In this document: positions 11,034 through 36,928 of the stretch, one piece after another
Layout: every line of letters begins with the position of its first letter
Position numbering within the stretch: position 1 is the stretch's first letter
Assembly (NCBI GenBank): GCA_964371455.1
Contig: CAYJMB010000002.1
Coordinates: forward strand, 1 to 39,671
Reading direction: 5' to 3'
DNA length: 39,671 bases
From: an uncultured archaeon
Lineage (GTDB): Archaea > Aenigmatarchaeota > Aenigmatarchaeia > GW2011-AR5
Notes under the pieces: generated by a model
Databases searched by the model: none
The model's input: the letters and a program-made list of their open reading frames with translations, nothing else
What the model was told of the DNA's origin: nothing
Position numbers and translations under genes: made by a program

Positions 11034-11158
11034 GCTGGGGTAGCCAAGTTTGGTCCAAGCGCTTCAGGCGCGGCTAACGGCGCATTTCCTTTTGGAACGT
11101 CACGGTTTGCTAAACCTGTGTGCTTCGGCACACGAGGGTTCAAATCCCTCCCCCAGCG
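11034..11158 (+). tRNA. tRNA-Ser(GCT), type II, with one intron of about 37 nt 5' of the anticodon loop
   Basis: Acceptor GCTGGGG/CCCCAGC with discriminator G. T-arm GAGGG-TTCAAAT-CCCTC. Long variable arm GTGTGC-TTCG-GCACAC. Removing 11069..11105 gives anticodon arm CAGGT-TTGCTAA-ACCTG. The D-arm fits poorly (GCC...GCG, 2-3 extra nt), so the junction is uncertain. Confidence 0.7.
11069..11105 (+). other. tRNA-Ser intron (non-canonical position, about 30/31; junction ambiguous by 2 nt, and a 40-nt alternative exists at 26/27)
   Basis: Splicing is needed to create the perfect 5-bp anticodon stem CAGGT/ACCTG. Confidence 0.55.
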
Positions 11159-11315
11159 CTTATGAGAATGATGCTTACAGATGGATTACGCTTGCTGATG
11201 CCAAAACAATGAAGTTCAGGGACGCTGCTGAAAAGAAGACCATCATGCAGCTGCTTGGCGAGAGGAAATGGCAGTAGAATAGCAAATCTGAACATTTTAA
11301 AGAGGCTGCGGGCAC

Positions 11316-11723
11316 ATGAAAGAAACGCATGTTGTGACATCTATTCTCATGTGCGAAGGGAAGATACTCATAGTCAAGAGAAGCGAGAGGGTAGGGTCGT
11401 TCAGGGGGAAATGGGCAGGCATCTCAGGGTATATTGAAGCAGGAGAAAATCCCCTGGAATGCGCCATTAAGGAAATCAGGGAAGAGACAGGACTCAAGGA
11501 GGAAGAGATAAAATTAATATCAGAGGGCGACTCTGTGATTACAAAAAAAGACGGCGAGACATGGGTTGTGCACCCCTTCCTCTTTGAAACAGGGAAAAGC
11601 GAGATATGCCTGGACTGGGAGCATGAGCAGTGCGAGTGGATTGAGGCGAAAGATCTGGGAAACTACGAGACAGTGCCCAGCCTGAAAGAAGTCCTGGAGA
11701 GCGTGCTCAGTTCGCGTAAATGA
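11316..11723 (+). CDS. Nudix hydrolase
   Basis: Nudix box GKWAGISGYIEAGENPLECAIKEIREETGL (GX5EX7REUXEEXGU). Confidence 0.85.
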   Translation: MKETHVVTSILMCEGKILIVKRSERVGSFRGKWAGISGYIEAGENPLECAIKEIREETGLKEEEIKLISEGDSVITKKDGETWVVHPFLFETGKSEICLDWEHEQCEWIEAKDLGNYETVPSLKEVLESVLSSRK

Positions 11724-11775
11724 TTTTGCTATTGGTCTCACGAAGAAGATAAAAATCTACAGGGTAATACTTATA

Positions 11776-11964
11776 GTGAGCATAATGATACTAGATAAAT
11801 GGCAGGTCCTAGGAATTACAGCCTTGATTTTTAACCCTGTGCCGACAGGCATACTGGCCGGCTACTTCCTGCACAGGGACAAGTACGGCTCGGGGAAGTT
11901 CATCATGCTGCTATCAGTTATCTGGGCTGCAGCACTTATTTATTTCTTGTACGCAAGGAGCTAA
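11776..11964 (+). CDS. Small membrane protein (2 TM)
   Basis: GTG start at 11776, with an alternative ATG at 11785. Two hydrophobic segments. It lies between the two Nudix genes on the same strand. Confidence 0.4.
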   Translation: MSIMILDKWQVLGITALIFNPVPTGILAGYFLHRDKYGSGKFIMLLSVIWAAALIYFLYARS

Positions 11965-11973
11965 GGTGAAATC

Positions 11974-12438
11974 ATGATCAAAGGAACTTTGTGCTACATT
12001 GTGACAGAAGGGAAGATTCTTCTCATAAAAAAGAAGACTGGTTTGGGAGAAGGGAAGTTCAATGGCCCGGGCGGCAAGGTAGAAGACGGCGAGACAGCGG
12101 AGAGCGCGGCTGTGAGGGAATTCGTGGAAGAGACAGGCGTCATGCCGCTTGACCCAGAGCATGCAGGCACAGTAGCATTTTACTTTGGGCAGAAAGAGAA
12201 ACCAGACTGGCTGGTGCACATCTTCAAAGCAGCGCGTTTCAAGGGCGAACCTGTCAATACAGAGGAAGCTGAGCCGCAGTGGTTTGGGCTAGATGCTATC
12301 CCATACAACCACATGTGGCCTGATGACAGGATATGGATGCCCCTCATGCTAGCAGGCAAAAAGTTCATGGGGAAATTTTACTTCGATGAAAAAGGGGAAG
12401 AAATGAAAGAGCATGAGATCATTGCTGTGGAGACTTGA
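11974..12438 (+). CDS. Nudix hydrolase (MutT-like)
   Basis: Nudix box GPGGKVEDGETAESAAVREFVEETGV. Confidence 0.85.
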   Translation: MIKGTLCYIVTEGKILLIKKKTGLGEGKFNGPGGKVEDGETAESAAVREFVEETGVMPLDPEHAGTVAFYFGQKEKPDWLVHIFKAARFKGEPVNTEEAEPQWFGLDAIPYNHMWPDDRIWMPLMLAGKKFMGKFYFDEKGEEMKEHEIIAVET

Positions 12439-12487
12439 GCACATGGAAAAATGGGTCGGGGCAGAATCGAACTGCCTGTTTCTGCCT

Positions 12488-12530
12488 TACCTATAAAATG
12501 GGGTACGATGCATCGAAGATGCAGGGTACT
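12488..12530 (-). other. tRNA-Val intron 2, canonical 37/38 position, 43 nt
   Basis: It lies between CTTACA and A-GGCAG and contains the hairpin GCATC-TTC-GATGC. Confidence 0.7.
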
Positions 12531-12541
12531 TGTAAGGGCAG

Positions 12542-12573
12542 CGTTTAGCCGATTGAGATACCAAAGCTGCTTC
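12542..12573 (-). other. tRNA-Val intron 1, non-canonical, 32 nt, between the D-arm and the anticodon stem (position 26/27, or alternatively 21/22)
   Basis: The length arithmetic fits exactly (149-43-32=74). The precise junction is not resolved. Confidence 0.55.
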
Positions 12574-12644
12574 AATCACATGCCGGTAGACCACCGACCC
12601 ATGATGAATAATTTAAAGACAATACATAAATAGTTGGAAAGGAA

Positions 12645-12941
12645 TTGAAGCATATGGCTGATTCAGTTGAAGAGAAAGCAAAGCAGTACATGGATGTGCG
12701 GACTGTCATACTGACTTCAATAATTTCTGCATTCGGTTTTGTGCTTGCACTATTCTGGAACGAGGCTGTGAAATCGGCAATAGAGCAGGTTGTGCCAAGA
12801 GGCGATTCGGTTACAGCAAAATTCATGGCTGCAATAATAGTGACTATTGTTGTCGTCGTCCTAATATTCATTATAATCAAGAGCCAGAAGATTGCGGAAA
12901 AGAGAGTGACTGCATTAACGAGAAAGATGAATGAGAAATAA
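12645..12941 (+). CDS. Small membrane protein (2 TM)
   Basis: Clean ORF with TM segments ILTSIISAFGFVLALFW and FMAAIIVTIVVVVLIFIII. Confidence 0.55.
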   Translation: MKHMADSVEEKAKQYMDVRTVILTSIISAFGFVLALFWNEAVKSAIEQVVPRGDSVTAKFMAAIIVTIVVVVLIFIIIKSQKIAEKRVTALTRKMNEK

Positions 12942-13046
12942 TTATCGGCGATTAACTAAGTGCGTTTCATATTCCAATTGCACTGCTTCTGTAATTGCTC
13001 CCAAGAATATACAAGATTTAAATACGGGCTTTGACATATAAAGAAT

Positions 13047-13517
13047 ATGAAAACGTCCCTCATTGTCTGGGGCATTATCATGCTTATTGTATTCTCAGGA
13101 GCCAATTGGCTTTTGGCAAACAAACTGCTTGCAGAAGCCTGGATATGGGTGATACTGGCAATAATTCTCGTTGTAGCCAATTTCCTGCTTGGCAGGACAT
13201 TCAAGAAAATGCCGAAAGGCACAGAGACTATGTGGATGGCGCTTAATGTATTTGGCTTTATAACAACGCTGGCTGTTGCTGTTGGCGTTGTGCCTGCGCC
13301 ACCCTGGTGGCTGATGTCACTGTGGCTGCTCCTTATGGGAGGCGCTGTGGCTATCGGGGGACATGCTGGCAATAACGCACTGAATATGTTCATGGGGCTG
13401 ATAATGATATTTGCGTCTTTGTCTGTTGCAGGCTTTGGCAATTCTTATCTGCTTGCAGGCTCGCTGTTTTTTGGATTCCTCGCAGTGGTGCACGGCTACT
13501 TCTTCGGTGAAGAATAA
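13047..13517 (+). CDS. Integral membrane protein (4-5 TM)
   Basis: Hydrophobic throughout; no family assigned. Confidence 0.55.
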   Translation: MKTSLIVWGIIMLIVFSGANWLLANKLLAEAWIWVILAIILVVANFLLGRTFKKMPKGTETMWMALNVFGFITTLAVAVGVVPAPPWWLMSLWLLLMGGAVAIGGHAGNNALNMFMGLIMIFASLSVAGFGNSYLLAGSLFFGFLAVVHGYFFGEE

Positions 13518-14188
13518 AACCAAGATTCCTTTTCAATTAAAGCAATGTACATATAATTGCCTGAATCTATGAACTTTCTGATGCGCCATCCCGTTCCTTG
13601 AAGAATGTTGTTCATTTCTTTTTTTGAAACAAGCAAGTAATCAAGCCAATCTCCTTTATGTTTTTTGAATCTTATTCTTATCCTCAGCTGGCCAGCCATT
13701 CTCCCACGCCTTTTATTAAATTTGTGATATTCAAGGTGTGCCGGATCTTTAGTATTATATGGATCGAGGCTTTCAGCAATAATTAGAGCTTTCTTCGTAG
13801 TTATTTTATGCAAGATTTTCAACAAATGCTTGGCTTTTTTGAAACTTCCGAACAAGCCAAAATTGTTGCCATACATAATTACCGTATCGAATGAATCCGG
13901 CTTGAATTTTCTTATTTCATCTATGGACATGACCAAAGCTCTCTTGACACCCCTTGCTTTGCACACCTTAATAGCAAGAGGAGAATTGTCTATGGCCGTA
14001 ATGTCAAAACCTTTCTTCTGGAGATAAAGAGATACCCTTCCAGCTCCGCAGCCGATATCCAAAACATGTCCTTTTGCAAACTTAATAGCTTTCTTCTGCC
14101 AAAGAGGCCAATTTTTATAACCTGCAAATTTGTTTTCAAAGTATAAAAAATGGAAAAACATCAATTCAATTTCTGCACTAATTTTCAT
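13496..14188 (-). CDS. Class I SAM-dependent methyltransferase
   Basis: Motif I VLDIGCGAGRVSLYL, then motif II ITAIDNS. The start is uncertain: ORF-track start 14335, with ATG candidates at 14188 and 14161. Confidence 0.8.
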   Translation of the reverse strand: MKISAEIELMFFHFLYFENKFAGYKNWPLWQKKAIKFAKGHVLDIGCGAGRVSLYLQKKGFDITAIDNSPLAIKVCKARGVKRALVMSIDEIRKFKPDSFDTVIMYGNNFGLFGSFKKAKHLLKILHKITTKKALIIAESLDPYNTKDPAHLEYHKFNKRRGRMAGQLRIRIRFKKHKGDWLDYLLVSKKEMNNILQGTGWRIRKFIDSGNYMYIALIEKESWFYSSPKK

Positions 14189-14465
14189 GCTTTGCACCAA
14201 AACACGTATTATTAAAGAAATATATGAGTCTAACGTGGTAAAGATGAATTGCATTGCATGCGGAGAGCAGACATTGCTGACCAGCAAATGTTGTGAAGTG
14301 ATAGCAGCATTTTGCAATGAGCATCTCCCTATCAAGATAAGAATTCCTTTAGTCGTTCAGCACTGAACAGCCTAGGACAGAAAATCCCTTTCTTGTAAGA
14401 AAGGTCTTTGCATACCCCAAAGAACAGTTGGGATATTATAGTGGAGGACCATAGGAGGTGGTTGC

Positions 14466-14627
14466 ATGAATAAGGGATTTATTGCGAAGATTCCAAAATG
14501 CTGCGGCCGAGCAATGGAGATAAGAATGGAGACTCCACGATTTCTTGAGCTGTGCTGCAGTTACTGTGATGATGCGGTGTACGTCAAAAAAGACTATGTA
14601 AAAGGGCCGCAGCTTCTTGACGACTGA
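14466..14627 (+). CDS. Small Cys-rich (zinc-ribbon-like) protein, 53 aa
   Basis: Below the ORF-track cutoff. A strong SD (taGGAGGTGgttgc) precedes the ATG. Sequence: MNKGFIAKIPKCCGRAMEIRMETPRFLELCCSYCDDAVYVKKDYVKGPQLLDD, with two Cys pairs spaced 17 aa apart. Preferred over the antisense 73-aa ORF 14436..14657. Confidence 0.45.
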   Translation: MNKGFIAKIPKCCGRAMEIRMETPRFLELCCSYCDDAVYVKKDYVKGPQLLDD

Positions 14628-14631
14628 ACTA

Positions 14632-15132
14632 ATGATTCTTAAAGTTTCAAACACCAAAATTACAAAAGAGTTAAAAGAGTTGAACCTGACTATGACAGAA
14701 AAATCGACAAAAAAAGTGAAGTGGAATGAGACAACATTCTTTATGATAATAGCTGTTTATCTTATTGTTATAGTATTTTCTGGCATATATTTATTTGCAT
14801 GGCAGGGATTCGGTTCCAAGGGACTCGTCTTTTCTATAGCAGGAAGAGACCAGGTGCTCAATGCATTTGACATCATACTGCTCGCAGCAACCATTGCAGC
14901 ATTTTTCCTTGTTGCAATTTCACTGCTGGCATTCAAGAGGCGCAAGGACAACAGGATTTTAATTCTGGCTCTAGCATTCTTCTTTTTTGCACTGAGCGAG
15001 ATACTCCAGCTCTTTGAGAATTTTTTCCCTGCGGAGTACATATTCATCAGCAACGCGGGCAAAGTCCTTGACCTGCTCATTCTGCTGTCATTTGCAATGC
15101 TGGTTTATGCCAGGTACTACAAGCCAAGGTGA
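14632..15132 (+). CDS. Integral membrane protein (4 TM)
   Basis: ORF-track frame 14617..15132 (TTG start); first ATG at 14632. It overlaps the downstream regulator start by 4 nt. Confidence 0.55.
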   Translation: MILKVSNTKITKELKELNLTMTEKSTKKVKWNETTFFMIIAVYLIVIVFSGIYLFAWQGFGSKGLVFSIAGRDQVLNAFDIILLAATIAAFFLVAISLLAFKRRKDNRILILALAFFFFALSEILQLFENFFPAEYIFISNAGKVLDLLILLSFAMLVYARYYKPR

Positions 15133-15662
15133 TAGCTATGCCAGACCCCCTGCAGCTGGAGGTCAGAAAGAACATTTACGACACAATATGCAAGTATCCC
15201 GGCATACACATGCGCGAACTGCAGAGGCAGCTGCAACTTGCCACCGGCAGCATGGACTATCATCTGCACTTTCTTCATAAAAATGGCCTCATCAGGCTGG
15301 AAAAGACCGGACGGTTCACAAGATACTACAATGCCATGGAGGCGTTCTCCGAGGCGGAAAAGCACGTGCTGTCCATCCTCAGGCAAGAAAAGCTCAGGCA
15401 TATCGTTCTATTTTTGCTGCAGAAGAAACATGCGAATGCGACAAATATCTCAGAAGCTACAGGGCTTCAGCCTTCCAATCTTTCAGGACATCTCAAGACG
15501 CTGGAAAACAATGGCATCATCCAGTACAGCAAAAAAGGCAGATTCCGCTTCTATGAGGTCAAAGACAAAGATATGATAATCAAGTGCCTTGTTGTGCACA
15601 AAAAGAGCTTCCTTGACCAGATGGTTGATAATTTTATAGACGCGTGGATCGGGGAAGAATGA
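15129..15662 (+). CDS. Transcriptional regulator with two ArsR-like winged-helix domains
   Basis: wHTH 1: IHMRELQRQLQLATGSMDYHLHFLHKNGLI. wHTH 2: NISEATGLQPSNLSGHLKTLENNGIIQYSKKGRFRFYEV. GTG start at 15129, alternative ATG at 15138. Confidence 0.75.
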   Translation: MIAMPDPLQLEVRKNIYDTICKYPGIHMRELQRQLQLATGSMDYHLHFLHKNGLIRLEKTGRFTRYYNAMEAFSEAEKHVLSILRQEKLRHIVLFLLQKKHANATNISEATGLQPSNLSGHLKTLENNGIIQYSKKGRFRFYEVKDKDMIIKCLVVHKKSFLDQMVDNFIDAWIGEE

Positions 15663-15752
15663 GAAATGAAAGAAATGACTTGTCAACTATGCTTACAACA
15701 ATTATGAAAGACTTGCGAGAGCAGATTTTATCATAGGAGCAATTCCATAGGC

Positions 15753-16742
15753 ATGATGCTGAAAATAGTAAAAAGCTATGCTGCGCCGCTATACGGCAGG
15801 GTTGGCGGCAGGATAAAGATAAGCCCTTTCCGCTATGTTGACTTCAGGAAGATGTTTTCGCAAATGACTGAAGAAGAAAGGATACGATACTATGCTGTAT
15901 TTGGCGGCACGCCGTATTATCTTGCGCGCGCAAAAGATACGGCAGGTGACATTTACAGTCGGATTTATACGCTCGTACTGATGCGGGACGGAAAGCTAAG
16001 GGACGAGTCAGAGATACTCATGGAAGCCGAGAACCTCAGGACGCACGCAAAGTACAATTCCATACTGCAGGCGATTTCCATGGGCAAGGAGGCGACAAAA
16101 GAGATTGAGGACTATACGCGTATCAAAAGAACAACGCTTCCCACCTACCTAAAAAACCTTGAAAAGCTGCTTGACATCGTCGAAAAAGTCGAGCCTGTCA
16201 TGGGAAAGGAGCGCCACGGCCGCTACAGGATAAGCGACAATTTCTTCAGGTTCTGGTACAAATTTGTATTTCCCAACCAGAGCCTCTTTAACATGGCAGA
16301 CGGCGCAGAAAAGGTTCATGCCATGATCAAGGACAACATGAACGCCTATATTGCAAAGACCTTTGAGAAGATTGTACATGAGCTACTCCTGCTGTACTCT
16401 GGCAGGGCGATAAAGGGCCTCGAGATAGACTTCGACCAAATAGGCAGCTGGTGGGACAGGAAAGCAAACGAAATAGATATCGTGGCATTCAACAGGAAAA
16501 AAGGGCCTGTCCTCCTAGGAGAAATAAAATGGACAAATGAGAAAGTGGACACCGATCTTCTCAACGACCTTGCCAGGAAAGCCAAGCTGGTAAACTTCAG
16601 GGGCGAATACAAGCTCATGATCGTTTCAAAGAGCGGCTTCACGAAGAAATGCATAGAAAAGATGGAACAGATGAAATGTGTTTACCTGGATCTGGCTGAT
16701 ATAGAGAAGTTGTTTGATGAATGCATAAATGAGGTGATGTAG
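15753..16742 (+). CDS. Archaeal ATPase (PF01637)/DUF234 family protein lacking the P-loop N-terminus
   Basis: The ORF begins at the post-Walker-B block (SYAAPLYGRVGGRIKISPF) and ends with a DUF234-like block (IGSWWDRKANEIDIVAF...LGEIKW). Only 90 nt separate it from the upstream gene, so the roughly 130-150 aa with Walker A/B is absent. Confidence 0.65.
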   Translation: MMLKIVKSYAAPLYGRVGGRIKISPFRYVDFRKMFSQMTEEERIRYYAVFGGTPYYLARAKDTAGDIYSRIYTLVLMRDGKLRDESEILMEAENLRTHAKYNSILQAISMGKEATKEIEDYTRIKRTTLPTYLKNLEKLLDIVEKVEPVMGKERHGRYRISDNFFRFWYKFVFPNQSLFNMADGAEKVHAMIKDNMNAYIAKTFEKIVHELLLLYSGRAIKGLEIDFDQIGSWWDRKANEIDIVAFNRKKGPVLLGEIKWTNEKVDTDLLNDLARKAKLVNFRGEYKLMIVSKSGFTKKCIEKMEQMKCVYLDLADIEKLFDECINEVM

Positions 16743-17291
16743 TTGGATATAGTGCAAAAAGCGTTGCAGTTTGCTTACGAGCACCACAAGCCCCAGAAAA
16801 GAAAAGGCACAGACATCCCGTATTTTGTGCATATTCTTGATGTCGCCTCGATCCTGCTGAAAAATGGAGCCGAGGACGATGTCGTGGCTGCCGGAATTCT
16901 TCACGATATTGTAGAAGACGGCGAATATACCAAAGTGACGGAAAACATGATCAGGGAGGAATTTGGCAATAAAATAGCGGACCTTGTAATGAGCGTCACA
17001 GAGCGGGACAAAAGCCTCCCATGGAAAAAACGAAAGGAAATTGCAGTAGATCATCTGAAGCATGGTTCAATTGTTGTCCACATGATCAAGTGCGCGGATA
17101 AGCTATCCAATATAAGGGATTTGATAACCGATCATAAATTGCACGGGGAGAAAATGTGGAAAAGGTTTAACGCATCAAAGCAAGACGAAGCGTGGTATTA
17201 CAGGGAAGTATTGAGGTGTCTGAAAATTAAAGGCACGCCCATGTATCAGGAGTACAGAGAATGCGTAGAGAATTTGTTTGGGCGCAGATAA
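16743..17291 (+). CDS. HD-domain phosphohydrolase (SpoT/Mesh1-like (p)ppGpp hydrolase fold)
   Basis: ALQFAYEHHKPQKRKGTDIPYFVHILDVASIL...AAGILHDIVEDG, containing the HD motif. TTG start. Confidence 0.8.
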   Translation: MDIVQKALQFAYEHHKPQKRKGTDIPYFVHILDVASILLKNGAEDDVVAAGILHDIVEDGEYTKVTENMIREEFGNKIADLVMSVTERDKSLPWKKRKEIAVDHLKHGSIVVHMIKCADKLSNIRDLITDHKLHGEKMWKRFNASKQDEAWYYREVLRCLKIKGTPMYQEYRECVENLFGRR

Positions 17292-17598: not shown

Positions 17599-17610
17599 AA
17601 ATTCACTCAA

Positions 17611-17733
17611 TGCTCCCACCGGGATTCGAACCCGGGTACCCGCAGCTCACAGAATACCTGCAAGCTTCCACGGCTCTCTTTTTCCTGATGAAACGAAAGG
17701 CCGCTATCCTTGACCGGACTAGACTATGGGAGC
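17611..17733 (-). tRNA. tRNA-Glu(TTC), interrupted: an 18-nt canonical intron plus an unresolved 29-30 nt insertion
   Basis: The reverse strand reads GCTCCCA TA GTCT AGTCCGGTCAA GGAT A GCGGC CTTTCG [18 nt] A GCCGT ...34 nt... CCGGG TTCGAAT CCCGG TGGGAGC A. The anticodon is at 17697-17695. Confidence 0.8.
17676..17693 (-). other. tRNA-Glu intron at 37/38 with a textbook bulge-helix-bulge motif
   Basis: The anticodon stem is GCGGC/GCCGT. The central 4-bp helix is CTTT/AAAG, flanked by 3-nt bulges CG|T and AG|A on opposite strands. The distal helix is TTC/GAA with loop ATCAG. Confidence 0.8.
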
Positions 17734-17801
17734 GCCTAAGGTAATGTTGAACGAAGCTTTTTAAAAAGATTTTATTTGAAATTCCTTACGGCGAGTATTC
17801 A

Positions 17802-18224: not shown

Positions 18225-18274
18225 GGATATACCTCAACAGAAAAGCTTATATGGATTTTAGCAGTAGATGACAT

Positions 18275-18604: not shown

Positions 18605-18652
18605 GCCGATTGAATACAAGATTTATAAGTTGTATTTCTCAATAATGAATTT

Positions 18653-20618: not shown

Positions 20619-20621
20619 CCC

Positions 20622-28473: not shown

Positions 28474-31400
28474 TTAATGACCTGAACATCCGCAGCCTCC
28501 ACCACCACAGCCGCACGTTCCATGATCAGAAGCTTTATCTTGAATAACTGTGAGAGATGTCTCTTTTCTTTTTGCGAGCTCCTGGGCTGCTGCCTGCTTG
28601 ATATCGTCAACGCTGCAGCAGTCTCCAGCAAGAGCACCGCCGCTTGCCGGGTGGCTCATTGTAGGTTTCTTTGGGAAGTGAGAAACTCCAGACTTGCCTG
28701 CACCTGCGGGCATAGGGAATGTGATGGCAGGTTCTTCGGCATTTGCAACTTCTTCGTCTCCCCAGTCTGCTTCAAAGTACTGGCGCGTCTTGAACTTGCG
28801 GTGCTTGTCAAAATTCGCTTTGATCGCGAGCATCTCCTCTTTTGTAAGCCTGCGGTGGTACTTGTCCTTTGAGAGCTGCTTGCCTGTTTTCTTCTCCCAC
28901 TCTGAGAACGGAATGGAGAATTTTCTCTGTATGCGGTCTCTATACAATTCAGGGATAACGTTGAATGTGCAGAACGGAATAACGCGGCCGTCAGGAGTTG
29001 CGTAGTGAATATCACACTTGTGTATGCGGTCTATATCCCAGTTGAACGGGTCCTGGAAGTGCATCATACCGATGAATAAAGAATTCTTGTGGAAGTCTGC
29101 GAGACCGTGATAGTTGCCGCCCTGCATGGCTCCTGTGAGCATGCGGACGAACTTCAGATTCTTTGGCTTGTGCTCTTCGTCAACATACTTGCGGATGTTC
29201 CACATAAGCTTTGCCAATACCCAGGATTTTCGCATCTTCTTGTATTTGGCATTGTTGATCTCTCGCGTCAGTTCACCGAGATAGTCAAAGAAGCCATCAA
29301 TGTCAAAGAAGCGCGTAATAGGGACGAGCTTCATGTTATCGCCATCACCGTCTTTGAAAACATACGTTGCCATGCCGCAGGCGAAGTGGATAGAAAGACG
29401 ATACTTAGGCTCATCTTTCAGGGCTTCCACGAAATCTGTGACCTGCTTTGCGCATGGCACAGGGAAGAAATCCTCGCGCCCGACCTGGCCGTCTGTCTGC
29501 TCTTCAATACGCTTGATTGCTCCAGGGATTGTAATCCTCTGTCTCTTTCTTAGCTGGTCTGGCATTCTGCCGACAAGAGAGACAGGCTGGAAATTGACAG
29601 AGCGCACTGTGTCAATATTGCCCGCGCCAAACCGGATGATGTCACCGAGCTCGTGGTCATTTACACCGCCTATGACTGTCGGCACAAGCACAACGCCAAG
29701 GCCGGCTTGCCTGCAGGACTCAATGGCTGACTGGGCTTCCCAATAGTTTTTTGGATTTGTTTCAGGCGCCATACCATCAAAGCTCATGTAGAGATTGTTC
29801 ACACCTGCTTCACGGATTTTTTTTGCAAGTTCAGGGTCTTTGGCAAGATTTACTCCATTCGTATTGAGCTGGACGTGGTCGTATCCAATTTCTTTGGCAG
29901 CTCTGATAATATCAGGAAGATCTTCACGCAAAGTTGGCTCGCCGCCTGTGATCTGCACTGCATTGGCACCGACAGGCTTGATATTTCTCATCCTGCGCAG
30001 CATGAATTTTATCTGGTCCATGCTGGGCTCATAAATAGGCTCGCCTTCTTTTGCATAAAAGAAGCAGTTGCTTACAAGGATCCCGTCACCTGCCAAAAAC
30101 ACATGTTCCATATTCTCTACTTCAATATCGTACACATATTCTTCTGTTTGTCTTGCCAGAATTTCCTTTACTTCATCTACAACAAAGTCTCCAATCCTTT
30201 CGATCCTTGCCCCTCTTCGTGGCGTAAGCCCGAGAAGCCTGGCTTTGTGGCCTTGCCGAAGGTCCAAAGCAGCAGCGAGTTTTTCCATGTCTTTGCCCGA
30301 TACATAAATCTTGTGCAAGTCATAGTTTGCGCCTTTTATCTTTTCTTTGGGAACTGTATAGATGCGGCAGAATACACCCAGCGAAGACAGCAAATACATG
30401 ACATCTCTTGCCAATCCTCTGGAAACAGTTGCCAGTCCCATGCTGGCATGCCTTTTCCCGCGCGTAACAAAACCATCTCCATTAAACAGGCCGCTTAACA
30501 GTGCTGTCTTTAATGCGTAAGGCATGCCAAAAAACATCTTTGGAACCCTTTTTCCTGAAGCTTTCTCAGGAATGCCTAATACATACTTGAAGACAAGTCT
30601 CATATTCCTGGAACCAATTACGATCTGCGGTGCCTTGCCATACTTTTCAAGATTAAGAGTACTGTACTGAAGACCCAGCCTCTTTATGCAGTCTATAATT
30701 TCGACTGCATGCATTTTGTCCTTGCATGTTATGCGCAGGTCTTTGTATGTGTAGTGCCCGTTGGCAATAAAGTAGCCTATAATTTTTGCCAAGTCCTTGC
30801 TTGTTTTCAGCCTTCTAGGAAGTTTTTCCTTGGTTGCATCCCTTCCAAAAGTAACTTCATGATTTGTGTCCGGCAGTTTGTAAAATTCAGAAAGCGGCAT
30901 AGTATCCCGTGATCGCCAGCTATAGAAAAGCCCGCCTGAAGTACCTGTCAGGGCAGCTCTCACATTGTGGACATATATTTTTTGTTTTTCCACGTCAGGA
31001 ATAGCTGAAAATGCTTCAAGAAGGTCTATCTCAATCTCGTGTGCAGCGGGCAGAGCCGCGCCTGCCAACAGTTTATCGCCGATTTTTAATTCGCTGGCCG
31101 GCTTCTTTAAAAGGTCCTTGCCGTCTAACATCGCAAGCATGTGTTCTGGCGTGACTTTGATGCGCCTTCCCGTCTTTGTTCTGACCTCCAATAAAGAGCC
31201 TTTGTACGGCCTTGTGAAAACTTTTTTTATTTTTGCCCATGTCGCAATACCTGAGCTGAATGTCAGGGTTTCTGTGCCATCCAAATATGCGAATTCGCCT
31301 TCGATATCGTTAATTTTGATTTTTGTGGGCTGACTGCCCGGTATATTTAACAATGTCTCTATTTTCTCAAGAGACACTACCCCATTTCTTCTGACTATCA

Positions 31401-31914
31401 ATTCCTCTTCCCCCGGGAGACAATACCAACAAGTCAAGTCGCAGCGGTTTGTAATTACGATGTTGCCCAGTCCTGTATGGGACTCATGTTCAACACAAAG
31501 GCCGCAATCAGTGGGGCAATCAATATCAAACTTGCTCTTGTCTATGTGCGGATTGAGAATCTTGATTCCAGGGTCCTGGAAGCGCTCTGCTTTCTTAAAC
31601 ATCTCGTAGTCAGACCAGTAGAGCTCCTTGGTCACGCCGTGCTCTACGCAACTCTTGATGACCCATACTTTGTTGTTGCGGGCATATGTGACTGCGTCGA
31701 TCTTAATCCTGTCCCATTTTTCCTCGTCCACGCATCCCGGGCACAGGCTCTGGTGAAATTTCAGGACAAGAGTATCTGCGGGTAAAAGAGAAAGAAGAGC
31801 CTGTTTTCTTTCATGAGTGAAATTCTTAACATAGGGCGATGTCGGGACAATTTCGATATTCTGTGTAACTTCTTTCGGGTCGTGTGTAATAGCTTGCGGG
31901 TATGCATTTACCAT
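28474..31914 (-). CDS. Radical SAM enzyme of the MJ0619/Tes (tetraether lipid synthase)-like family, interrupted by an intein
   Basis: N-terminal zinc-ribbon pattern SLCPGC...SCVEHG. Second Cys site CPTDCGLCVEHESHTG. Radical SAM motif NRCDLTCWY-C, split by the intein. GGEPTL SAM-binding block downstream. SD GGAGGT lies 7 nt before ATG 31914; the alternative upstream ATG is 31953. Confidence 0.8.
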   Translation of the reverse strand: MVNAYPQAITHDPKEVTQNIEIVPTSPYVKNFTHERKQALLSLLPADTLVLKFHQSLCPGCVDEEKWDRIKIDAVTYARNNKVWVIKSCVEHGVTKELYWSDYEMFKKAERFQDPGIKILNPHIDKSKFDIDCPTDCGLCVEHESHTGLGNIVITNRCDLTCWYCLPGEEELIVRRNGVVSLEKIETLLNIPGSQPTKIKINDIEGEFAYLDGTETLTFSSGIATWAKIKKVFTRPYKGSLLEVRTKTGRRIKVTPEHMLAMLDGKDLLKKPASELKIGDKLLAGAALPAAHEIEIDLLEAFSAIPDVEKQKIYVHNVRAALTGTSGGLFYSWRSRDTMPLSEFYKLPDTNHEVTFGRDATKEKLPRRLKTSKDLAKIIGYFIANGHYTYKDLRITCKDKMHAVEIIDCIKRLGLQYSTLNLEKYGKAPQIVIGSRNMRLVFKYVLGIPEKASGKRVPKMFFGMPYALKTALLSGLFNGDGFVTRGKRHASMGLATVSRGLARDVMYLLSSLGVFCRIYTVPKEKIKGANYDLHKIYVSGKDMEKLAAALDLRQGHKARLLGLTPRRGARIERIGDFVVDEVKEILARQTEEYVYDIEVENMEHVFLAGDGILVSNCFFYAKEGEPIYEPSMDQIKFMLRRMRNIKPVGANAVQITGGEPTLREDLPDIIRAAKEIGYDHVQLNTNGVNLAKDPELAKKIREAGVNNLYMSFDGMAPETNPKNYWEAQSAIESCRQAGLGVVLVPTVIGGVNDHELGDIIRFGAGNIDTVRSVNFQPVSLVGRMPDQLRKRQRITIPGAIKRIEEQTDGQVGREDFFPVPCAKQVTDFVEALKDEPKYRLSIHFACGMATYVFKDGDGDNMKLVPITRFFDIDGFFDYLGELTREINNAKYKKMRKSWVLAKLMWNIRKYVDEEHKPKNLKFVRMLTGAMQGGNYHGLADFHKNSLFIGMMHFQDPFNWDIDRIHKCDIHYATPDGRVIPFCTFNVIPELYRDRIQRKFSIPFSEWEKKTGKQLSKDKYHRRLTKEEMLAIKANFDKHRKFKTRQYFEADWGDEEVANAEEPAITFPMPAGAGKSGVSHFPKKPTMSHPASGGALAGDCCSVDDIKQAAAQELAKRKETSLTVIQDKASDHGTCGCGGGGCGCSGH
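30067..31422 (-). mobile_element. Intein (452 aa) with LAGLIDADG homing-endonuclease domain
   Basis: It starts with Cys (CLPGEEELIV) and has block B VTPEHML, LAGLIDADG motifs IIGYFIANGHY and LLSGLFNGDGFV, and block G GDGILVSN, followed by +1 Cys (CFFYAKEG). Excision restores CDLTCWYC. Confidence 0.85.
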
Positions 31915-32252
31915 CTGGATACCTCCTGTTCTGCAATACGCCTTCGGCGCCATACTTGTTTGCGATTAAATCCATGACTCTGCCATATAAACTTTTAGCG
32001 ATTTCTAAAAGTTATAAATGTATTAGCGTGAATGATATTTAAAGGTTGATGTGTCGGTGGGGAGACATATCATTCATGATTTTGTTGAAGTTTTTCAATG
32101 TCTTTACGTAATTCAAGCAAATAAGGAGTCACTACAGCTGCTGCTGAGATTGGTCTTCCCACAAAACGCCTCCAGAACTCAGTCCAATGTTCAGTAGCAT
32201 ATTCGAATAGTACCATTATAATCCTTTTAACCCTTTCCTCTAATTAATCTGC

Positions 32253-32711
32253 ATGCCAGACGGAGATGTGAACAAAAAGATATTTGCGACGTTTGCCAGC
32301 GTGGCATCGGCGCTGGGATTCAGCGAGGTGCACGGCATGATCATAGGCGCGATTCTTGTTGCGAACAGGCCGCTCTCGCTGCAGGAAATTGCCAAGAGGA
32401 CAGGGTACTCCTTGTCATCGATTTCTATATCCATTGACCTACTTGAGTTAGTCGGGATTGTGCGAAAAATCAAAAACCTCGGTGACCGCAAAATTTATGT
32501 CAAGCTTGAGGGGGATCTTATTGAGAGCCTGAAGAAGGCATTCATGCTGAAAATACAGAAAGAGATGTTCCTCACCAAGATGGAGCTGGAAAAATACAAG
32601 GCAGGCACCAAAGATACAAACATGAAAAGAACCATAGAAGTTTTGCAGCACGAAGTTAACAGGCTACAGAATTATATCAACAGAATGGCTGAGGTTGAGA
32701 TACCGAAGTGA
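32253..32711 (+). CDS. MarR/GbsR-like winged-helix transcriptional regulator
   Basis: wHTH LSLQEIAKRTGYSLSSISISIDLLELVGIVRKI followed by a coiled-coil tail. Confidence 0.65.
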   Translation: MPDGDVNKKIFATFASVASALGFSEVHGMIIGAILVANRPLSLQEIAKRTGYSLSSISISIDLLELVGIVRKIKNLGDRKIYVKLEGDLIESLKKAFMLKIQKEMFLTKMELEKYKAGTKDTNMKRTIEVLQHEVNRLQNYINRMAEVEIPK

Positions 32712-32713
32712 GG

Positions 32714-33307
32714 CTATTTTCTTATCAGAATATCTACTATTTTTCTGAAGTCTTCCATGCCCTTAAAGACAAAAGCTTGCATACCTGCGTTAGCTGCGGC
32801 TTTGACATGCTGTGTGTCATCATCAAAAAATACCATCTCATGCGGCTCAAGCCCTAAAATGCCGATAATAAATCTGAACACTTTCTCATCAGGCTTCGTC
32901 GCTCCTATTTCATGCGATGCGATTATGAAATCGAACAATTTATCCAGAGAAAGCTTCCTGATCATGTAATCCATCCTGTACTTTTCGTTATTGGTGCACA
33001 GAACTAACTTGATATTTCTGTTTCTCAGCTGTTTAACAACCTCTAACATCTCTTGGTTGGCAGTCCCATCGTCAAACCAGTATTCAAGCAGGGCATTTAT
33101 TCCCTTCTTCCACTCCCATTTTCTGATGTAAAGCTTCAGCACTTCTTTCATATCTTTTTTGCCTTCAAGGCATTCCTGAAAATGTCTGTGGAAAAAATCT
33201 TCTATTTCACTGAGAGGCATATCAAAATCCTTGCTGAAACGCCTGCTAAAGAGGTCACTTTCAAAATACAGAACGCCATCGAAGTCGAGTACAACGGCTT
33301 TGATCAT
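32714..33307 (-). CDS. HAD-superfamily hydrolase
   Basis: Motif I VVLDFDGVL, motif II VLCTNN, motif III ATKPD, motif IV FFDDD. The likely start is MIKAVV (ATG 33307). Confidence 0.8.
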   Translation of the reverse strand: MIKAVVLDFDGVLYFESDLFSRRFSKDFDMPLSEIEDFFHRHFQECLEGKKDMKEVLKLYIRKWEWKKGINALLEYWFDDGTANQEMLEVVKQLRNRNIKLVLCTNNEKYRMDYMIRKLSLDKLFDFIIASHEIGATKPDEKVFRFIIGILGLEPHEMVFFDDDTQHVKAAANAGMQAFVFKGMEDFRKIVDILIRK

Positions 33308-33374
33308 AGTTATAGCTGCAGATAAACTATTTAATCTGGTTTTATTGTAATAATAGCAGCAAGGTGTTTTCAGA

Positions 33375-33803
33375 ATGCAACAGCAGCAGAAGATTTTCAG
33401 CATAGAGGAAGCCGATGTTCTTGTGCCTTTCATAAAAAATGCATTCAGCGAGATCTTCAGTCTGAACGAGATCACGAGGTTTTTGGGCATTGATATAAGC
33501 GATTTGGTTAATATCTGGGGAAAGGAAATATCAGAGCCCGGAAATGTTGATTATGAACTGTACAAAGAAAAGTTAGAAAAAAGGAACCAGACAGAGAAGA
33601 AAATTCAAGAGATGTTTGACGAGATATCAAAAACAGGCGCTGTTGTAAAAGACATGGATGTCGGTCTAGTAGATTTCTACTCAAAGAATGGCGATGAGCT
33701 TGTCATGCTGTGCTGGAAATTCGGCGAGGACAGGATAAGGTTCTGGCACCCCGCTTCTGGCGGATTTTCCAGACGGAAGCCAGTTGAGGAATTGAAGAGA
33801 TAA
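33375..33803 (+). CDS. DUF2203-like protein
   Basis: FSIEEADVLVPFI...GAVVKDMDVGLVDFYS...LCWKFGEDRIRFWH. Confidence 0.55.
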   Translation: MQQQQKIFSIEEADVLVPFIKNAFSEIFSLNEITRFLGIDISDLVNIWGKEISEPGNVDYELYKEKLEKRNQTEKKIQEMFDEISKTGAVVKDMDVGLVDFYSKNGDELVMLCWKFGEDRIRFWHPASGGFSRRKPVEELKR

Positions 33804-34020
33804 TGAAGCTGACAACAAATAGGCTTTGTTATATTTCGCTTCGTCGTATGCTGTCGCGAGGCTAAAGAAAGATTCTGTCCGCAAAATAGAGATAATTCTG
33901 ATTGTACTGATACTTATTTCGATAGCAGCCCTGTTCTTGATGGCTGCCGCACCTCCAACAGTGGAAACAATTTCTCAGGCTGTTTGATGCCTTTTTAAAA
34001 TTTCCGCGGAAAAAACTACT

Positions 34021-34323
34021 ATGGCATTCGTAAAAGTGGCATCTGTGCATGACATTAGACCAGGAGAAGGCAAAACAATAACCGCCAATGGAAAAGAAAT
34101 AGCTTTATTCAATGTGAATGGCAGGTTCTTTGCCATTGACAACACATGCCCGCACAGGGGTGGGCCTCTGGGAGAGGGAGAGCTTGCGGATAGCATAGTT
34201 ACATGTCCCTGGCATGGGTGGCAGTATAATGTGCAGACAGGTGAGGGCATCACAATGCCCGTTAGCGTTAAAAGATTCGAGGTCAGAGTGGAGGGCAAAG
34301 ATATTTTGGTGAATGTTCAATAA
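34021..34323 (+). CDS. Rieske [2Fe-2S] domain protein (NirD-like small ferredoxin)
   Basis: CPHRGGPL ... CPWHGWQY. Confidence 0.85.
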   Translation: MAFVKVASVHDIRPGEGKTITANGKEIALFNVNGRFFAIDNTCPHRGGPLGEGELADSIVTCPWHGWQYNVQTGEGITMPVSVKRFEVRVEGKDILVNVQ

Positions 34324-34585
34324 AAATTCGGCAAGCCGTCGGGATATTTTTTCCTTAATTCTCCAACGCGGATTTTGGAAATGTCTTCTAATGTGAACCA
34401 ACCTATCTGATCAGATTTGCCCGGCTCAAGAATCTTGGGCTCCCACTTTTTACTTTACAAACAAAAGCGGGGAAACCCAGTGCCGCTTTTCTTCCTCCCG
34501 GAAACTCCCTTCCTCTTTGTTAACTATAACAGCTCCGACACCTACGCCAATATAATCCACGCCACGTTGCATTTGGTGGATTATG
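34317..34585 (-). pseudogene. Possible Nudix hydrolase remnant (frameshifted)
   Basis: Reverse-strand pieces lie in different frames: VDYIGVGVGAVIVNKEEG, EFPGGRK...FVCKVKSGSP, IGWFTLEDISKIRVGELRKKYPDGLPNFY*. No intact Nudix box is present. Confidence 0.3.
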
Positions 34586-34634
34586 ATTGCTATCTATATA
34601 AATATATTCACTCTAACTGCTCTAAAGTGGTGTT

Positions 34635-36299
34635 ATGACCCAGACAGAAAAAATAAACTGGATGGAATGGGGAAAAGATGCGTTTGAGAGGGCGAAAAAA
34701 GAGAATAGGCCGATATTGTTAGATATATCTGCTGTCTGGTGTCATTGGTGCCACGAGCTCGATAAAAATGCTTATTCTGATCCTGTGGTTATCAAAACAA
34801 TAAATGAAAACTTTGTGCCGATACGCGTTGATACAGACAAAAGACCTGACATCAATGAACGATACAACCAGGGAGGCTGGCCGACTACCGCCTTTCTCAC
34901 GCCAGAGGGCGGGCTCATCGCAGGCGCGACTTATGTCCCGGTGGAGCAGATGAAAGCCCTGCTGCCGCAGGTGAAGTATTTTTACAACACGCAGAAACAG
35001 AATATCAGCAGCACTATACAGAAGCCACAATACAAAGAAGGCGTTGTTTCCGAACAGATAGCACAGGATGTAGCATTATACCTGAAAGATAATTTTGATG
35101 CTGTGCATGGCGGCTTCTACTATGAGCCGAAGTTTCCCATGCCTGAAGCGATTGAGATCGCAATACTTTTGTACATAAAAACACACGACAAAGAGCTGCT
35201 GAACATCGTCAAGACAACTCTTGACAGGATGACAGGCATTTACGACACAGTTGAAAACGGCTTCTTCCGCTATTCTGTGCGACAGGACTGGTCGCTTCCG
35301 CACTATGAGAAAATGCTGGAGGTTAATGCAGGGCTTTTGCAGAATTATGTGCATGCATTTTCATTGACAGGCAAAGAGGATTACAGGAAAATCGCAGAAG
35401 GAATAATAAAATACATCAGGCCAAAGCTTTTTGGCATTGCATTCTATGGCAGCCAGGACGCCGATGAGGAATACTATGCCTTGCCGCTGGCAGAGAGGAA
35501 GCAGGCAAAAGAACCTTTCATAGACAAGACGATATACACGAACTGGAACGGCAAATGCATTGCTGCATTTGTAGATGCGTACGCTGTTCTCGGCGATGCC
35601 ACGCTTTTGACTGATGCACAAAAGGTCCTCAATTTTCTCATTGACAGCTGCTATAATGAAAAGCAGGGCATGTGTCACTATCATGATGGCAAGAAAAATG
35701 TTTTCGGGTTGCTGACTGATAATGTCTGGATGATGGCGGCATTACTGAAAATGTACCAAGCAACAGCAGAGAGAACGTATCTGGAAACTGCGGAGAAGAT
35801 TGCTGATTACATAATAAAAAATCTCAAGGACAAGAAAGGATTTTTTGACAGGATTAAGGAAAAAGAAGGACTCGGACTTCTTAAGGAAAGGAACAAGTCC
35901 ATACTGGAGAACTCGATTGCTGCTATGGTTTTCACCGAACTCACAAAACTGACAGGAAAGGAGGAATACATCAAGGTAGCAGAAGGATGCTTATCAATAT
36001 TCTCACAAGATTACAAAGCTTATGGAATCCATGCTGCCCTTTACGCACTCGCTGTTGAGAAATTCCTGGACAACATTCATGTTGTAGTTGTCGGAGATGC
36101 GAAAGACGAAGAAGAAACAAGAAAGCTGGCTGCTATTTCCGATCCGAGAATAATTGTGCAATTTCTGGATGAGAAGCAAGATGAAAAAGATGTCAAGAAA
36201 TTAGGCTATGGAAGAGGAGTTTTCGTGTGCCATGGAAGCACGTGCAATAAGTTCAACACAATAGAAGAAGCGATGAGGAAACTAAGCGGCTTTGAGTGA
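34635..36299 (+). CDS. Thioredoxin-domain DUF255 protein (YyaL/SPATA20-like)
   Basis: INWMEWGKDAFERAKKENRPILLDISAVWCHWCHELD...FVPIRVDTDKRPDINERY, followed by a long alpha-helical domain. Confidence 0.85.
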   Translation: MTQTEKINWMEWGKDAFERAKKENRPILLDISAVWCHWCHELDKNAYSDPVVIKTINENFVPIRVDTDKRPDINERYNQGGWPTTAFLTPEGGLIAGATYVPVEQMKALLPQVKYFYNTQKQNISSTIQKPQYKEGVVSEQIAQDVALYLKDNFDAVHGGFYYEPKFPMPEAIEIAILLYIKTHDKELLNIVKTTLDRMTGIYDTVENGFFRYSVRQDWSLPHYEKMLEVNAGLLQNYVHAFSLTGKEDYRKIAEGIIKYIRPKLFGIAFYGSQDADEEYYALPLAERKQAKEPFIDKTIYTNWNGKCIAAFVDAYAVLGDATLLTDAQKVLNFLIDSCYNEKQGMCHYHDGKKNVFGLLTDNVWMMAALLKMYQATAERTYLETAEKIADYIIKNLKDKKGFFDRIKEKEGLGLLKERNKSILENSIAAMVFTELTKLTGKEEYIKVAEGCLSIFSQDYKAYGIHAALYALAVEKFLDNIHVVVVGDAKDEEETRKLAAISDPRIIVQFLDEKQDEKDVKKLGYGRGVFVCHGSTCNKFNTIEEAMRKLSGFE

Positions 36300-36494
36300 A
36301 TCTGACTCTAGGGTTAATTCTGCTGGCATATCAGGATGATACTCACTTATCTCAGGAACACGTTCAATACTGCCGTGTATTAAAAAGTAACAATATGAAC
36401 CGTCTGGTAACTGTTTTCTTACATACGCTGCACGGTATCTGGCCGGTCTGCCTTCTCCAACAGGCGAAGAAATAAATTCATACCATTCTTCCAT
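36282..36494 (-). CDS. Hypothetical protein
   Basis: ORF-track 36282..36578, with an internal ATG at 36494 (MEEWYEF). It overlaps the upstream convergent gene by 18 nt. No motif identified. Confidence 0.3.
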   Translation of the reverse strand: MEEWYEFISSPVGEGRPARYRAAYVRKQLPDGSYCYFLIHGSIERVPEISEYHPDMPAELTLESDSLKAA

Positions 36495-36645
36495 GCAATC
36501 GCCTAATAAAATGCTGCATTTACTGCATTTATATTGTAAAAAGATGTTAATATATTTTCTTTTAAAACTTGCCTGCAATAAATGACAAAGCTAATGGCGA
36601 CAAAATCGTCATATGACTAAGCAGGGGTCGTGTAGCCTGGTCCAA

Positions 36646-36694
36646 CCCTTTTTGCTCGCGCAAAAAACGTTGACGGGAAAAGGGTTACAGAAAA
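36646..36694 (+). other. tRNA-Leu intervening sequence 1 (about 49 nt, in the D-loop)
   Basis: It lies between AGCCTGGTCCAA and TCAC and forms the 9-bp helix AACCCTTTT/AAAAGGGTT. The junction is approximate. Confidence 0.55.
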
Positions 36695-36716
36695 TCACGC
36701 AAGGTTGAGGGCCTTG

Positions 36717-36763
36717 TTCCTTAGGGCGTGATGCGCTGTGCGCATCATACGGGGCATGGATAC
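36717..36763 (+). other. tRNA-Leu variable region of 47 nt; probably a 13-17 nt variable arm plus an intervening sequence of about 30 nt
   Basis: It contains the 9-bp hairpin GTGATGCGC-TGT-GCGCATCAT. The boundaries are not resolved. Confidence 0.4.
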
Positions 36764-36773
36764 GAGAGTTCAA

Positions 36774-36882
36774 GCGCAGGAAACCCAAGGTTTCCTACCG
36801 CCCTACCTTTCCTTAATAGCAGCTTTGCTGCAGAGGATAAGTAGACCGGTAGAGAAGGATACTTCCTTCTCTGCGGGAACAA
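36774..36882 (+). other. tRNA-Leu intervening sequence 3 (109 nt, in the T-loop)
   Basis: It splits TTCAAAT. The closing helix is CGCAG/CTGCG, and internal hairpins are GGAAACC/GGTTTCC, CTACCG/CGGTAG, GCAGC/GCTGC and GAGAAGG/CCTTCTC. The junction is ambiguous by 2-3 nt. Confidence 0.6.
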
Positions 36883-36928
36883 ATCTCTCCCCCTGCACTC
36901 TTTTATAGATTCGTGTAAAGCATTTCTC

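Follow-up and report, generated by a model that had tools for sequence, protein, structure and literature searches.

Multiple predicted archaeal-type introns in the tRNA genes of an Aenigmatarchaeota genome, and a dispersed hairpin repeat that recurs as an intron body

Sugahara in 2008 and Fujishima in 2010 reportedly described multiple-intron tRNA genes, and 'large-scale intron transposition', in the Thermoproteales. Such genes are reviewed for Pyrobaculum, Thermofilum and Caldivirga in PMC4090602 and PMC4033280. As in the genome studied here, a Thermoproteales gene can hold three or more introns of the bulge-helix-bulge (BHB) type, these can lie at noncanonical sites (D-arm, 28/29, 45/46 and T-loop), similar introns occur at different sites of different tRNAs, and CCA is not encoded. 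In the DPANN archaea, Candidatus Micrarchaeum acidiphilum ARMAN-2 likewise has noncanonical introns, some of them in the T-loop, together with relaxed BHB motifs (PMC3239211, PMC3488258), and some Asgard archaea have about two intervening sequences per gene, many D-arm introns missed by annotators, BHB-competent sites and repeated gains (bioRxiv 10.64898/2026.10.13.758758). On the enzyme side, the splicing endonuclease EndA of Nanoarchaeum equitans carries a specific loop beside the catalytic His (residues 90-98, with K93, K94, K96 and R97) that is the suspected basis of its broad specificity (Hirata et al. 2012, PMC3488258); this loop was later named L3, and alpha4-type EndA enzymes bearing it in DPANN archaea have been tied to disrupted tRNA genes (Kaneta et al. 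2018, PMC5829648). Here we analysed a stretch of 39,671 nt (the window), which is the entire contig C2 of a metagenome-assembled genome (MAG) from the Aenigmatarchaeota, a DPANN lineage (GCA_964371455.1, hereafter G000; 886 kb in 124 contigs, 73% complete). All four tRNA genes in the window are interrupted, and they are very probably functional genes that each hold two or three archaeal EndA-type (BHB) introns; in the genome at large, a dispersed hairpin repeat, famA, recurs as an intron body. Orthologues were compared across 44 genomes of the same family, of which G038 and G039 belong to the same genus; below, C-numbers are contigs of G000, other G-numbers are relatives and L-numbers are loci in those relatives.

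To locate tRNA genes we searched for T arms with a matching acceptor strand and then read the sequence directly, which gave the four genes of Table 1. No further tRNA exons were found in the window by BLAST with 40 reference tRNA genes (Rfam matches in relatives, some of which carry introns themselves). An initial annotation, made from the window sequence alone, had already described the Ser, Val, Glu and Leu genes as interrupted by at least seven intervening sequences; this is borne out, with nine inserts found, two each in Ser, Val and Glu and three in Leu. The same annotation placed four or five of them outside the canonical 37/38 site. Noncanonical sites do exist, but their number is seven, with only Val intron 2 and Glu intron 1 at 37/38 (2/9). 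It was also right that CCA is encoded in none of the four genes, whose 3' ends read ...CCCCAGC-G-CTTATG, ...CCGACCC-A-TTTTTC, ...TGGGAGC-A-TTGAGT and ...CCCCTGC-A-CTCTTT, and that standard tools mis-annotate such loci: default ARAGORN on the unspliced window found 0/4, while Rfam/Infernal at the gathering score found 1/4, namely tRNA-Glu(UUC), matched at 43.4 bits with two large inserts. Mechanical open reading frames (ORFs) of 30-130 aa overlap all four loci; it had noted four overlapping ORFs.

Table 1. Interrupted tRNA genes, their predicted introns and a stand-alone copy of the hairpin repeat famA in the window. Sprinzl positions are our own assignment from the cloverleaf; central, outer and inner refer to the helices of the BHB motif, outer and inner in bp, the inner helix being counted to 6 bp at most.
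Feature	Position	Strand	Length (nt)	Exons and product, or site	BHB class	Central	Outer	Inner
tRNA-Ser(GCU)	11034-11158	+	125	exons 11034-11057, 11078-11084, 11104-11158; mature 86 nt, type II				
Ser intron 1	11058-11077	+	20	3' side of D-loop, ~21/22	strict, score 14	4/4	2	5
Ser intron 2	11085-11103	+	19	anticodon stem 5' strand, 28/29	strict, score 15	4/4	3	4
tRNA-Val(UAC)	12600-12452	-	149	exons 12600-12579, 12544-12531, 12487-12452; mature 72 nt				
Val intron 1	12545-12578	-	34	D-stem 3' strand, ~23/24	relaxed; bulges TGT and AAA	3/4	none	at least 6
Val intron 2	12488-12530	-	43	canonical 37/38		4/4	5 (= anticodon stem)	weak
Stand-alone famA	14380-14440	+		intergenic; nhmmer E = 8e-16; GGGATATTATAG ~27 nt before ATG at 14467				
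tRNA-Glu(UUC)	17733-17611	-	123	exons 17733-17694, 17675-17668, 17637-17611; mature 75 nt				
Glu intron 1	17676-17693	-	18	canonical 37/38	strict, score 15	4/4	5	3
Glu intron 2	17638-17667	-	30	variable loop, 45/46		4/4 (CCGT x GCGG)	1	at least 6
tRNA-Leu(GAG)	36621-36897	+	277	exons 36621-36642, 36693-36724, 36757-36773, 36883-36897; mature 86 nt, type II				
Leu intron 1	36643-36692	+	50	D-loop, ~20a/20b	relaxed	3/4	0	at least 6
Leu intron 2	36725-36756	+	32	loop of variable arm		4/4	2	1
Leu intron 3	36774-36882	+	109	T-loop, 58/59; interrupts TTCAA/AT		4/4 (GTTC x GAAC)	4	1

The boundaries of the inserts were set by comparison with intron-free orthologues in the family rather than by the splicing motif, and it is the existence of these orthologues that fixes all nine. 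Intron-less versions have lengths of 87 nt for Leu and 75 nt for Glu in G007 and of 88 nt for Ser in G007 and G016. The spliced Ser(GCU) sequence equals the intron-less orthologues L181 and L184 except for substitutions; both Ser inserts are lacking in the G007 and G016 orthologues, and G039 has an insert at the site of Ser intron 2. For Val, the boundary of intron 1 follows from the intact D-arm of G029 (L165; GTCT ACCGGTA TGAT G), and intron 2 is missing from the orthologues of G017 and G009 (L160, L161). The site of Glu intron 2 reads GCCG(A/C) GGAC, with no insert, in G003 and G039 (L150, L151). Leu(GAG), whose anticodon arm holds no intron, has intron-less orthologues in G007, G033 and G035 (L102, L100, L108); joining gene positions 22 and 73 across Leu intron 1 yields GGTC-AATCACG, as in the orthologues, and the T-loop insert is absent from G007 and others. 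Once spliced, the four products form canonical cloverleaves with all stems intact, and default ARAGORN calls them as Ser(gct) of 86 nt, Val(tac) of 72 nt, Glu(ttc) of 75 nt and Leu(gag) of 86 nt.

At the junctions defined in this way, the same geometry appears nine times: two 3-nt bulges flank a 4-bp helix, in which exon positions -5 to -2 from the 5' splice site pair with intron positions -6 to -3 from the 3' splice site (9/9), the central helix being complete in seven cases and 3/4 in two. Each splice site follows the second base of its 3-nt bulge, so that the topology is that of a classical 37/38 intron, with flanking helices that vary. When all position pairs in the same genes were scored, between 0.04% and 3.6% of them, depending on the intron, did as well as the real junction. 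The Leu D-loop boundary was chosen among five equal-length options by BHB score together with orthologue identity, and its BHB value is therefore not fully independent.

Three other placements were considered and rejected. For the Leu D-loop, the boundary 25/76 gives no BHB, whereas 22/73 yields the orthologous D-loop and a relaxed BHB. ARAGORN with its -i option proposed a single 46-nt intron in Glu, in which case GCTGC would form the 3' strand of the anticodon stem and the variable loop would have 6 nt; orthologues read GCCGx-GGAC at this place, and both the 18-nt and the 30-nt intron show a 4/4 BHB. Finally, a near-perfect BHB-like fold at 86/105 in Leu (36694-36732, gene positions 74-112), with a 7-bp outer helix, a 4-bp central helix and 3-nt bulges, would excise the 3' half of the anticodon arm, CAAGG-TTGAGGG-CCTTG, which is 100% conserved and uninterrupted across all orthologues; by our own estimate, chance alone would produce about 0.4 motifs of this kind in a gene of 277 nt, and we take it for a chance or alternative fold.

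It could be argued that some of these inserts are not introns at all, but are retained in the mature RNA as expansions; the 32-nt insert of the Leu variable arm, or short inserts in D-loops of other G000 tRNA genes, would be examples. Long variable arms are tolerated in type II tRNAs, and several short inserts in G000 do score weakly as BHB. The Leu insert is, however, precisely missing in the same-genus orthologue (G039, L094) and in seven more, all of which join gene position 104 straight to 137, and the boundaries of the insert form a 4/4 BHB; moreover, a 20-nt D-loop or a 116-nt T-loop is, as textbook knowledge, incompatible with the tRNA fold. We regard retention as highly improbable.

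The pattern of sequence change points the same way. Compared with G038, 2/158 exon positions and 10/116 intron positions are changed (Fisher p = 0.005), and in Val(UAC) the exons show no difference (0/72) where the introns show nine (9/77). These figures bear on the possibility that the loci are decaying pseudogenes or artefacts of metagenome-bin assembly, a concern raised by the fragmentation of the MAG into 124 contigs and by the failure of standard finders to detect them. Against this stand the presence of the same interrupted genes in an independent same-genus genome at 94-98% identity, the stronger constraint on exons than on introns, the intactness of every stem after splicing, and our failure to find intact alternative copies of the four window tRNAs anywhere in G000, and we give decay or artefact a next to negligible probability. 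Functional genes with BHB introns are thus the reading that we carry forward. Intron positions vary among close relatives, and this variation indicates both gain and loss.

The initial annotation had further asked whether such a density of interruptions might hold genome-wide. It does: in a census of G000, about 28 of 30 tRNA loci (93%) are interrupted, and genes elsewhere in the genome are therefore not mostly uninterrupted. The only two uninterrupted tRNAs are Thr(CGU) at C55:1-73 and His(GUG) at C3:29931-30002. Infernal returned 17 tRNA matches in G000 at E <= 1, two of them compact and full-length, and ARAGORN with introns allowed returned 20 genes, three without an intron; one of these three is an 84-nt Gly(GCC), labelled Phe, with a 13-nt insert in the D-loop. 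For the census itself we used our own cloverleaf parser, which accepts insertions in four regions (D, anticodon, variable and T) and includes a term for the BHB. On the window genes it recovered the correct counts (2, 2, 2 and 3) and misplaced several boundaries, and because its boundaries are partly wrong its output was used only for counts and arm-level locations. With a reversed-sequence genome as decoy (top score 64), 27 loci in G000 score above 64.5 or are backed by Infernal; a borderline locus on C42, with a score of 65.5 just over the decoy maximum, was left out of the census. Inspection of the sequence flanking repeat copies added three loci, namely a Thr(GGU) gene at the beginning of C27, an Asn(GUU) gene with an intron in its T-loop (C75:790-985) and a type II tRNA gene truncated where C11 ends. 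Relatives differ in this respect. G007 and G032 have 25-27 Infernal matches, of which roughly half and a third, respectively, are compact, and strong tRNA matches range from 3 to 23 per genome across the 44 genomes of the family.

The annotation had named the heterotetrameric and epsilon2 forms of EndA as those that tolerate relaxed BHB motifs. The genome encodes neither of these types. We found instead a single gene (C75:2467-3111) for a 215-aa protein, within the roughly 170-220 aa of an alpha4-type subunit, with a Lys-rich N-terminal tail and both PF02778 and PF01974 in one ORF, in which the Tyr/His/Lys triad is intact when aligned to 1a79; that structure, the alpha4 enzyme of M. jannaschii, is also its best PDB relative (E = 5e-36). 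Its closest sequence matches are all from Candidatus Aenigmatarchaeota MAGs, mostly from groundwater, with a top identity of 95%. An epsilon2 protomer, such as that of ARMAN-2, has about 395 aa in three units (alphaN, alpha and betaC, with the ASL loop), whereas the protein found here has one N-terminal and one catalytic domain and aligns with 4fz2 at residues 163-288 only, the alpha unit. Nor was a second EndA-like gene, as an (alpha-beta)2 enzyme would need, detected at E <= 10 in a protein search of eight genomes, and neither G000 nor relatives with a completeness of 87-97% yielded a second homologue; a single EndA gene is present in each of 40/44 family genomes, including all ten that are at least 90% complete. 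Compared with the M. jannaschii enzyme, the protein has a 6-residue insertion, GVQLKKGPKSAKEH, right before the catalytic His, which aligns without gaps to the loop GVIPKKGKRSEREH of the N. equitans alpha subunit and is kept almost throughout the 69 Aenigmatarchaeota EndA loci in which this motif was detected. Judged by sequence, this EndA is alpha-type and alpha4-like with an L3 loop, neither (alpha-beta)2 nor epsilon2; it is presumably a homotetramer, and the loop suggests broad specificity. The relaxed and noncanonical substrates in G000 would likewise argue against an enzyme restricted to strict BHB motifs, and a heavy dependence on a permissive endonuclease, which the annotation had supposed, fits the density of tRNA introns.

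EndA shares its 3.2-kb contig, C75, with two multi-intron tRNA genes (790-985 and 1649-1781), and the Asn(GUU) gene on this contig has a famA intron in the D-loop in addition to its T-loop intron. The ligase RtcB is encoded on C66; its Pfam match (C66:6-2558, -) is interrupted by about 1.4 kb, with both halves in one and the same open frame of 909 aa, and the protein probably contains an intein.

Under the reading that we prefer, each gene would give rise to one precursor transcript, which would fold at each intron so that a 4-bp helix between exon and intron places the splice sites in 3-nt bulges. The single alpha-type EndA, presumably as a homotetramer, would cut both bulges, the Lys-rich loop beside its catalytic His probably permitting relaxed motifs, after which RtcB would ligate the exons and CCA would be added post-transcriptionally. 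Cleavage itself, like the oligomeric state and the substrate range of EndA, is what we infer from these sequences. Several points weigh against this account. The two relaxed junctions, in the Val D-stem and the Leu D-loop, have 3/4 central pairs and no outer helix, and classical alpha4 enzymes are reported to require a strict BHB (PMC5829648, PMC3488258). A very divergent beta subunit could escape detection, in a genome that is 73% complete, although relatives at 90-97% completeness lack one too. Finally, the estimate of about 50 introns in 27 genes (~1.9 per gene) comes from our own parser, with boundaries that are partly misplaced.

Turning to the introns themselves, a common pattern, (A/T)GCAAATCCC-TTTCTTAAAAGAAAGG-TCTTTGCATACCCCAAAGAA...ATATTA...GGGATTTGC, became visible when the parsed genes were printed. 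This repeat, famA, is a conserved element of ~50-100 nt with two hairpins, closed by a terminal helix GCAAATCCC...GGGATTTGC. A profile search with nhmmer found about 12 independent copies in G000 tRNA genes, all in the orientation of the tRNA: D-arm copies occur in Val GAC, Gln, Thr, Asn and other genes, copies at 37/38 in Trp, Gly and Gln, and a T-loop copy in Arg CCU (59/60). In this genome famA forms the body of at least ten tRNA introns. One BLAST cluster alone joins eight predicted introns from seven G000 genes, with sites in the D-arm, the anticodon region and the T-loop. In the T-loop copy, the terminal helix GCAAATCCC/GGGATTTGC becomes the inner helix of a perfect BHB, and a 4-nt tail, CGAA, pairs with the exon sequence TTCG. 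The nine introns of the window include no full copy (0/9). Across the family famA is present in 32/44 genomes, with up to at least 19 copies per genome, and genomes with more copies tend to have fewer compact tRNA genes with strong scores (Spearman rho -0.76, 44 genomes), a descriptive figure given that the genomes are phylogenetically non-independent. In a sample of 40 copies from 20 relatives, 20 lie in parsed tRNA genes, every one of them co-oriented (20/20); the D-arm holds most of these, the anticodon arm and the T-arm a few each. Three further copies lie in tRNA genes that the parser had missed.

Other intron sequences recur as well. Leu intron 1 has as its body a T-rich/A-rich hairpin like those in introns of relatives' tRNA genes, and pieces of it reappear at further loci in the family, while a copy of Leu intron 3 is found at 88% identity in G024, which belongs to a different genus. 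A second recurrent intron motif, GCGCAGGAA...CCTACCGC(C/T)CTA..., was noted in the Leu(GAG) T-loop intron, in a T-loop intron at C64:997-1232 and in an intron at C34:5479-5654.

Seven famA copies in G000 lie outside parsed tRNA genes. One of them, the stand-alone copy of Table 1, precedes a small Cys-rich ORF (14467-14628) and is kept at the orthologous spot in G038. We considered whether it might mark a fifth, hidden tRNA gene, and rejected this, there being no tRNA exons and no T arm at the place. A search for BHB motifs around stand-alone copies gave many BHB-like matches, which T-rich/A-rich hairpins yield by chance. The copies at C70:1619-1666, C79:2539-2585 and C119:101-141 start 1-2 nt from CAT, the start codon of a divergent gene, and at least 13 of the 40 copies sampled in relatives (e.g. 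L245, L247, L259, L263 and L265-L267) abut CAT and are followed by an aaaCCTT..TTCAAATATTA box; overall, 1-4 nt separate intergenic famA from the CAT of an unrelated divergent gene, and the box follows the repeat. The sequence context suggests that intergenic famA belongs to a promoter or 5'-leader module; the element may be mobile, a promoter or leader module, or both.

This arrangement lends some colour to a different account of the interrupted genes, in which they would be co-linear split genes, their pieces transcribed separately from a promoter in the cassette itself and joined in trans through the terminal helix of the intron, as in the split tRNAs of Nanoarchaeum. The long hairpin-repeat inserts hold a terminator-like hairpin together with a promoter-like ATATTA box, which the famA copies in tRNA introns retain upstream of the 3' strand of the terminal helix GCAAATCCC/GGGATTTGC, and the box that follows intergenic famA where it abuts start codons resembles a B recognition element and TATA box (BRE/TATA-like). 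Most of the window introns, however, are just 18-50 nt long and none holds the full element, and cis-splicing of a single transcript accounts for all of the observations, so that we consider separate transcription and trans-joining quite unlikely and retain cis-spliced BHB introns as the explanation.

The repeat is not confined to tRNA genes and to the DNA upstream of protein genes. In two relatives, G022 (L274:306-496) and G030 (L278:303-509), famA interrupts the 5S rRNA gene in loop C; the 5S matches (RF00001) are full-length and above the gathering score, the inserts measure 76 nt and 92 nt, and the junction is BHB-like. No 5S rRNA was found in G000. An intron in 5S rRNA gave no exact-phrase match in the literature that we searched, which is weak evidence of novelty. 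Two further features of the window concern other RNAs. The contig breaks off 48 nt into an archaeal 16S rRNA gene (39624-39671, +), and positions 15830-15907 (+) give a weak Rfam match to a C/D-box small nucleolar RNA family (25.5 bits, E = 0.55), with GCGG/CCGC pairing at the termini and a location inside a long ORF; it could be an archaeal C/D small RNA.

As to how the introns arose, we give roughly even credence to the view that a large share of the family's tRNA introns are copies of dispersed famA, an element that normally sits in intergenic, promoter-proximal positions, and that a copy inserted in a tRNA or 5S rRNA gene survives only in the orientation in which EndA can remove it. In that orientation, the terminal helix and the 4-nt tail complementary to the upstream exon would together form the BHB. 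Since many introns are copies of dispersed hairpin repeats, the high intron load most likely reflects recent, repeated gain in the genus.

Returning to the systems described at the outset, much of this picture is established: tRNA genes with several introns at noncanonical sites and with relaxed BHB motifs, the recurrence of similar introns at different sites, and loop-bearing EndA alongside disrupted tRNA genes are already known from the Thermoproteales, ARMAN and some other DPANN and Asgard lineages (PMC4090602, PMC3239211, PMC5829648 and the Asgard preprint). The Thermoproteales, however, belong to the TACK archaea and have an (alpha-beta)2 enzyme, whereas this DPANN genome encodes a single alpha EndA without the Crenarchaea-specific loop; and here, unlike there, the repeated intron body also turns up ahead of protein genes and, in relatives, within 5S rRNA genes. 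The resemblance to the DPANN enzymes with an L3 loop (PMC5829648) and to the Nanoarchaeum loop (PMC3488258) is close, with a single alpha subunit, a Lys/Arg-rich insertion before the catalytic His and disrupted tRNA genes. Unlike in PMC5829648, in whose text, as far as consulted, Aenigmarchaeota are named once, in the expansion of the DPANN acronym, the link is documented here at genome scale, with ~93% of tRNA genes interrupted. In the Asgard case the likeness lies in the number, sites and repeated gain of the introns; what sets the present genome apart is that some of its introns are plainly copied from a single dispersed element. Repeat-derived introns, intergenic and 5S rRNA copies of the repeat and strong variation among close relatives go beyond the literature compared.

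For practical purposes, standard pipelines will report most tRNAs as missing from G000, and probably from many DPANN MAGs, and the genes overlooked in this way (three of four in the window, and most genome-wide) distort completeness estimates and inferences about codon usage. The genome also offers a natural test case for an alpha4-type EndA with a Nanoarchaeum-type Lys-rich loop acting on relaxed BHB motifs in the D-arm, the variable loop and the T-loop, for which nine substrate junctions and a 215-aa enzyme are now defined. To our knowledge, no activity data exist for DPANN EndA enzymes with an L3 loop. More broadly, the family is well suited to the study of how introns arrive in archaeal tRNA genes, as the load varies strongly among close relatives and tracks the copy number of a repeat that also occurs in intergenic positions and in 5S rRNA genes. 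The origin of archaeal tRNA introns was explicitly left open by the 2026 Asgard study (bioRxiv 10.64898/2026.10.13.758758). If the famA-derived origin proposed here is true, it would represent an observable and ongoing route by which BHB introns are gained.

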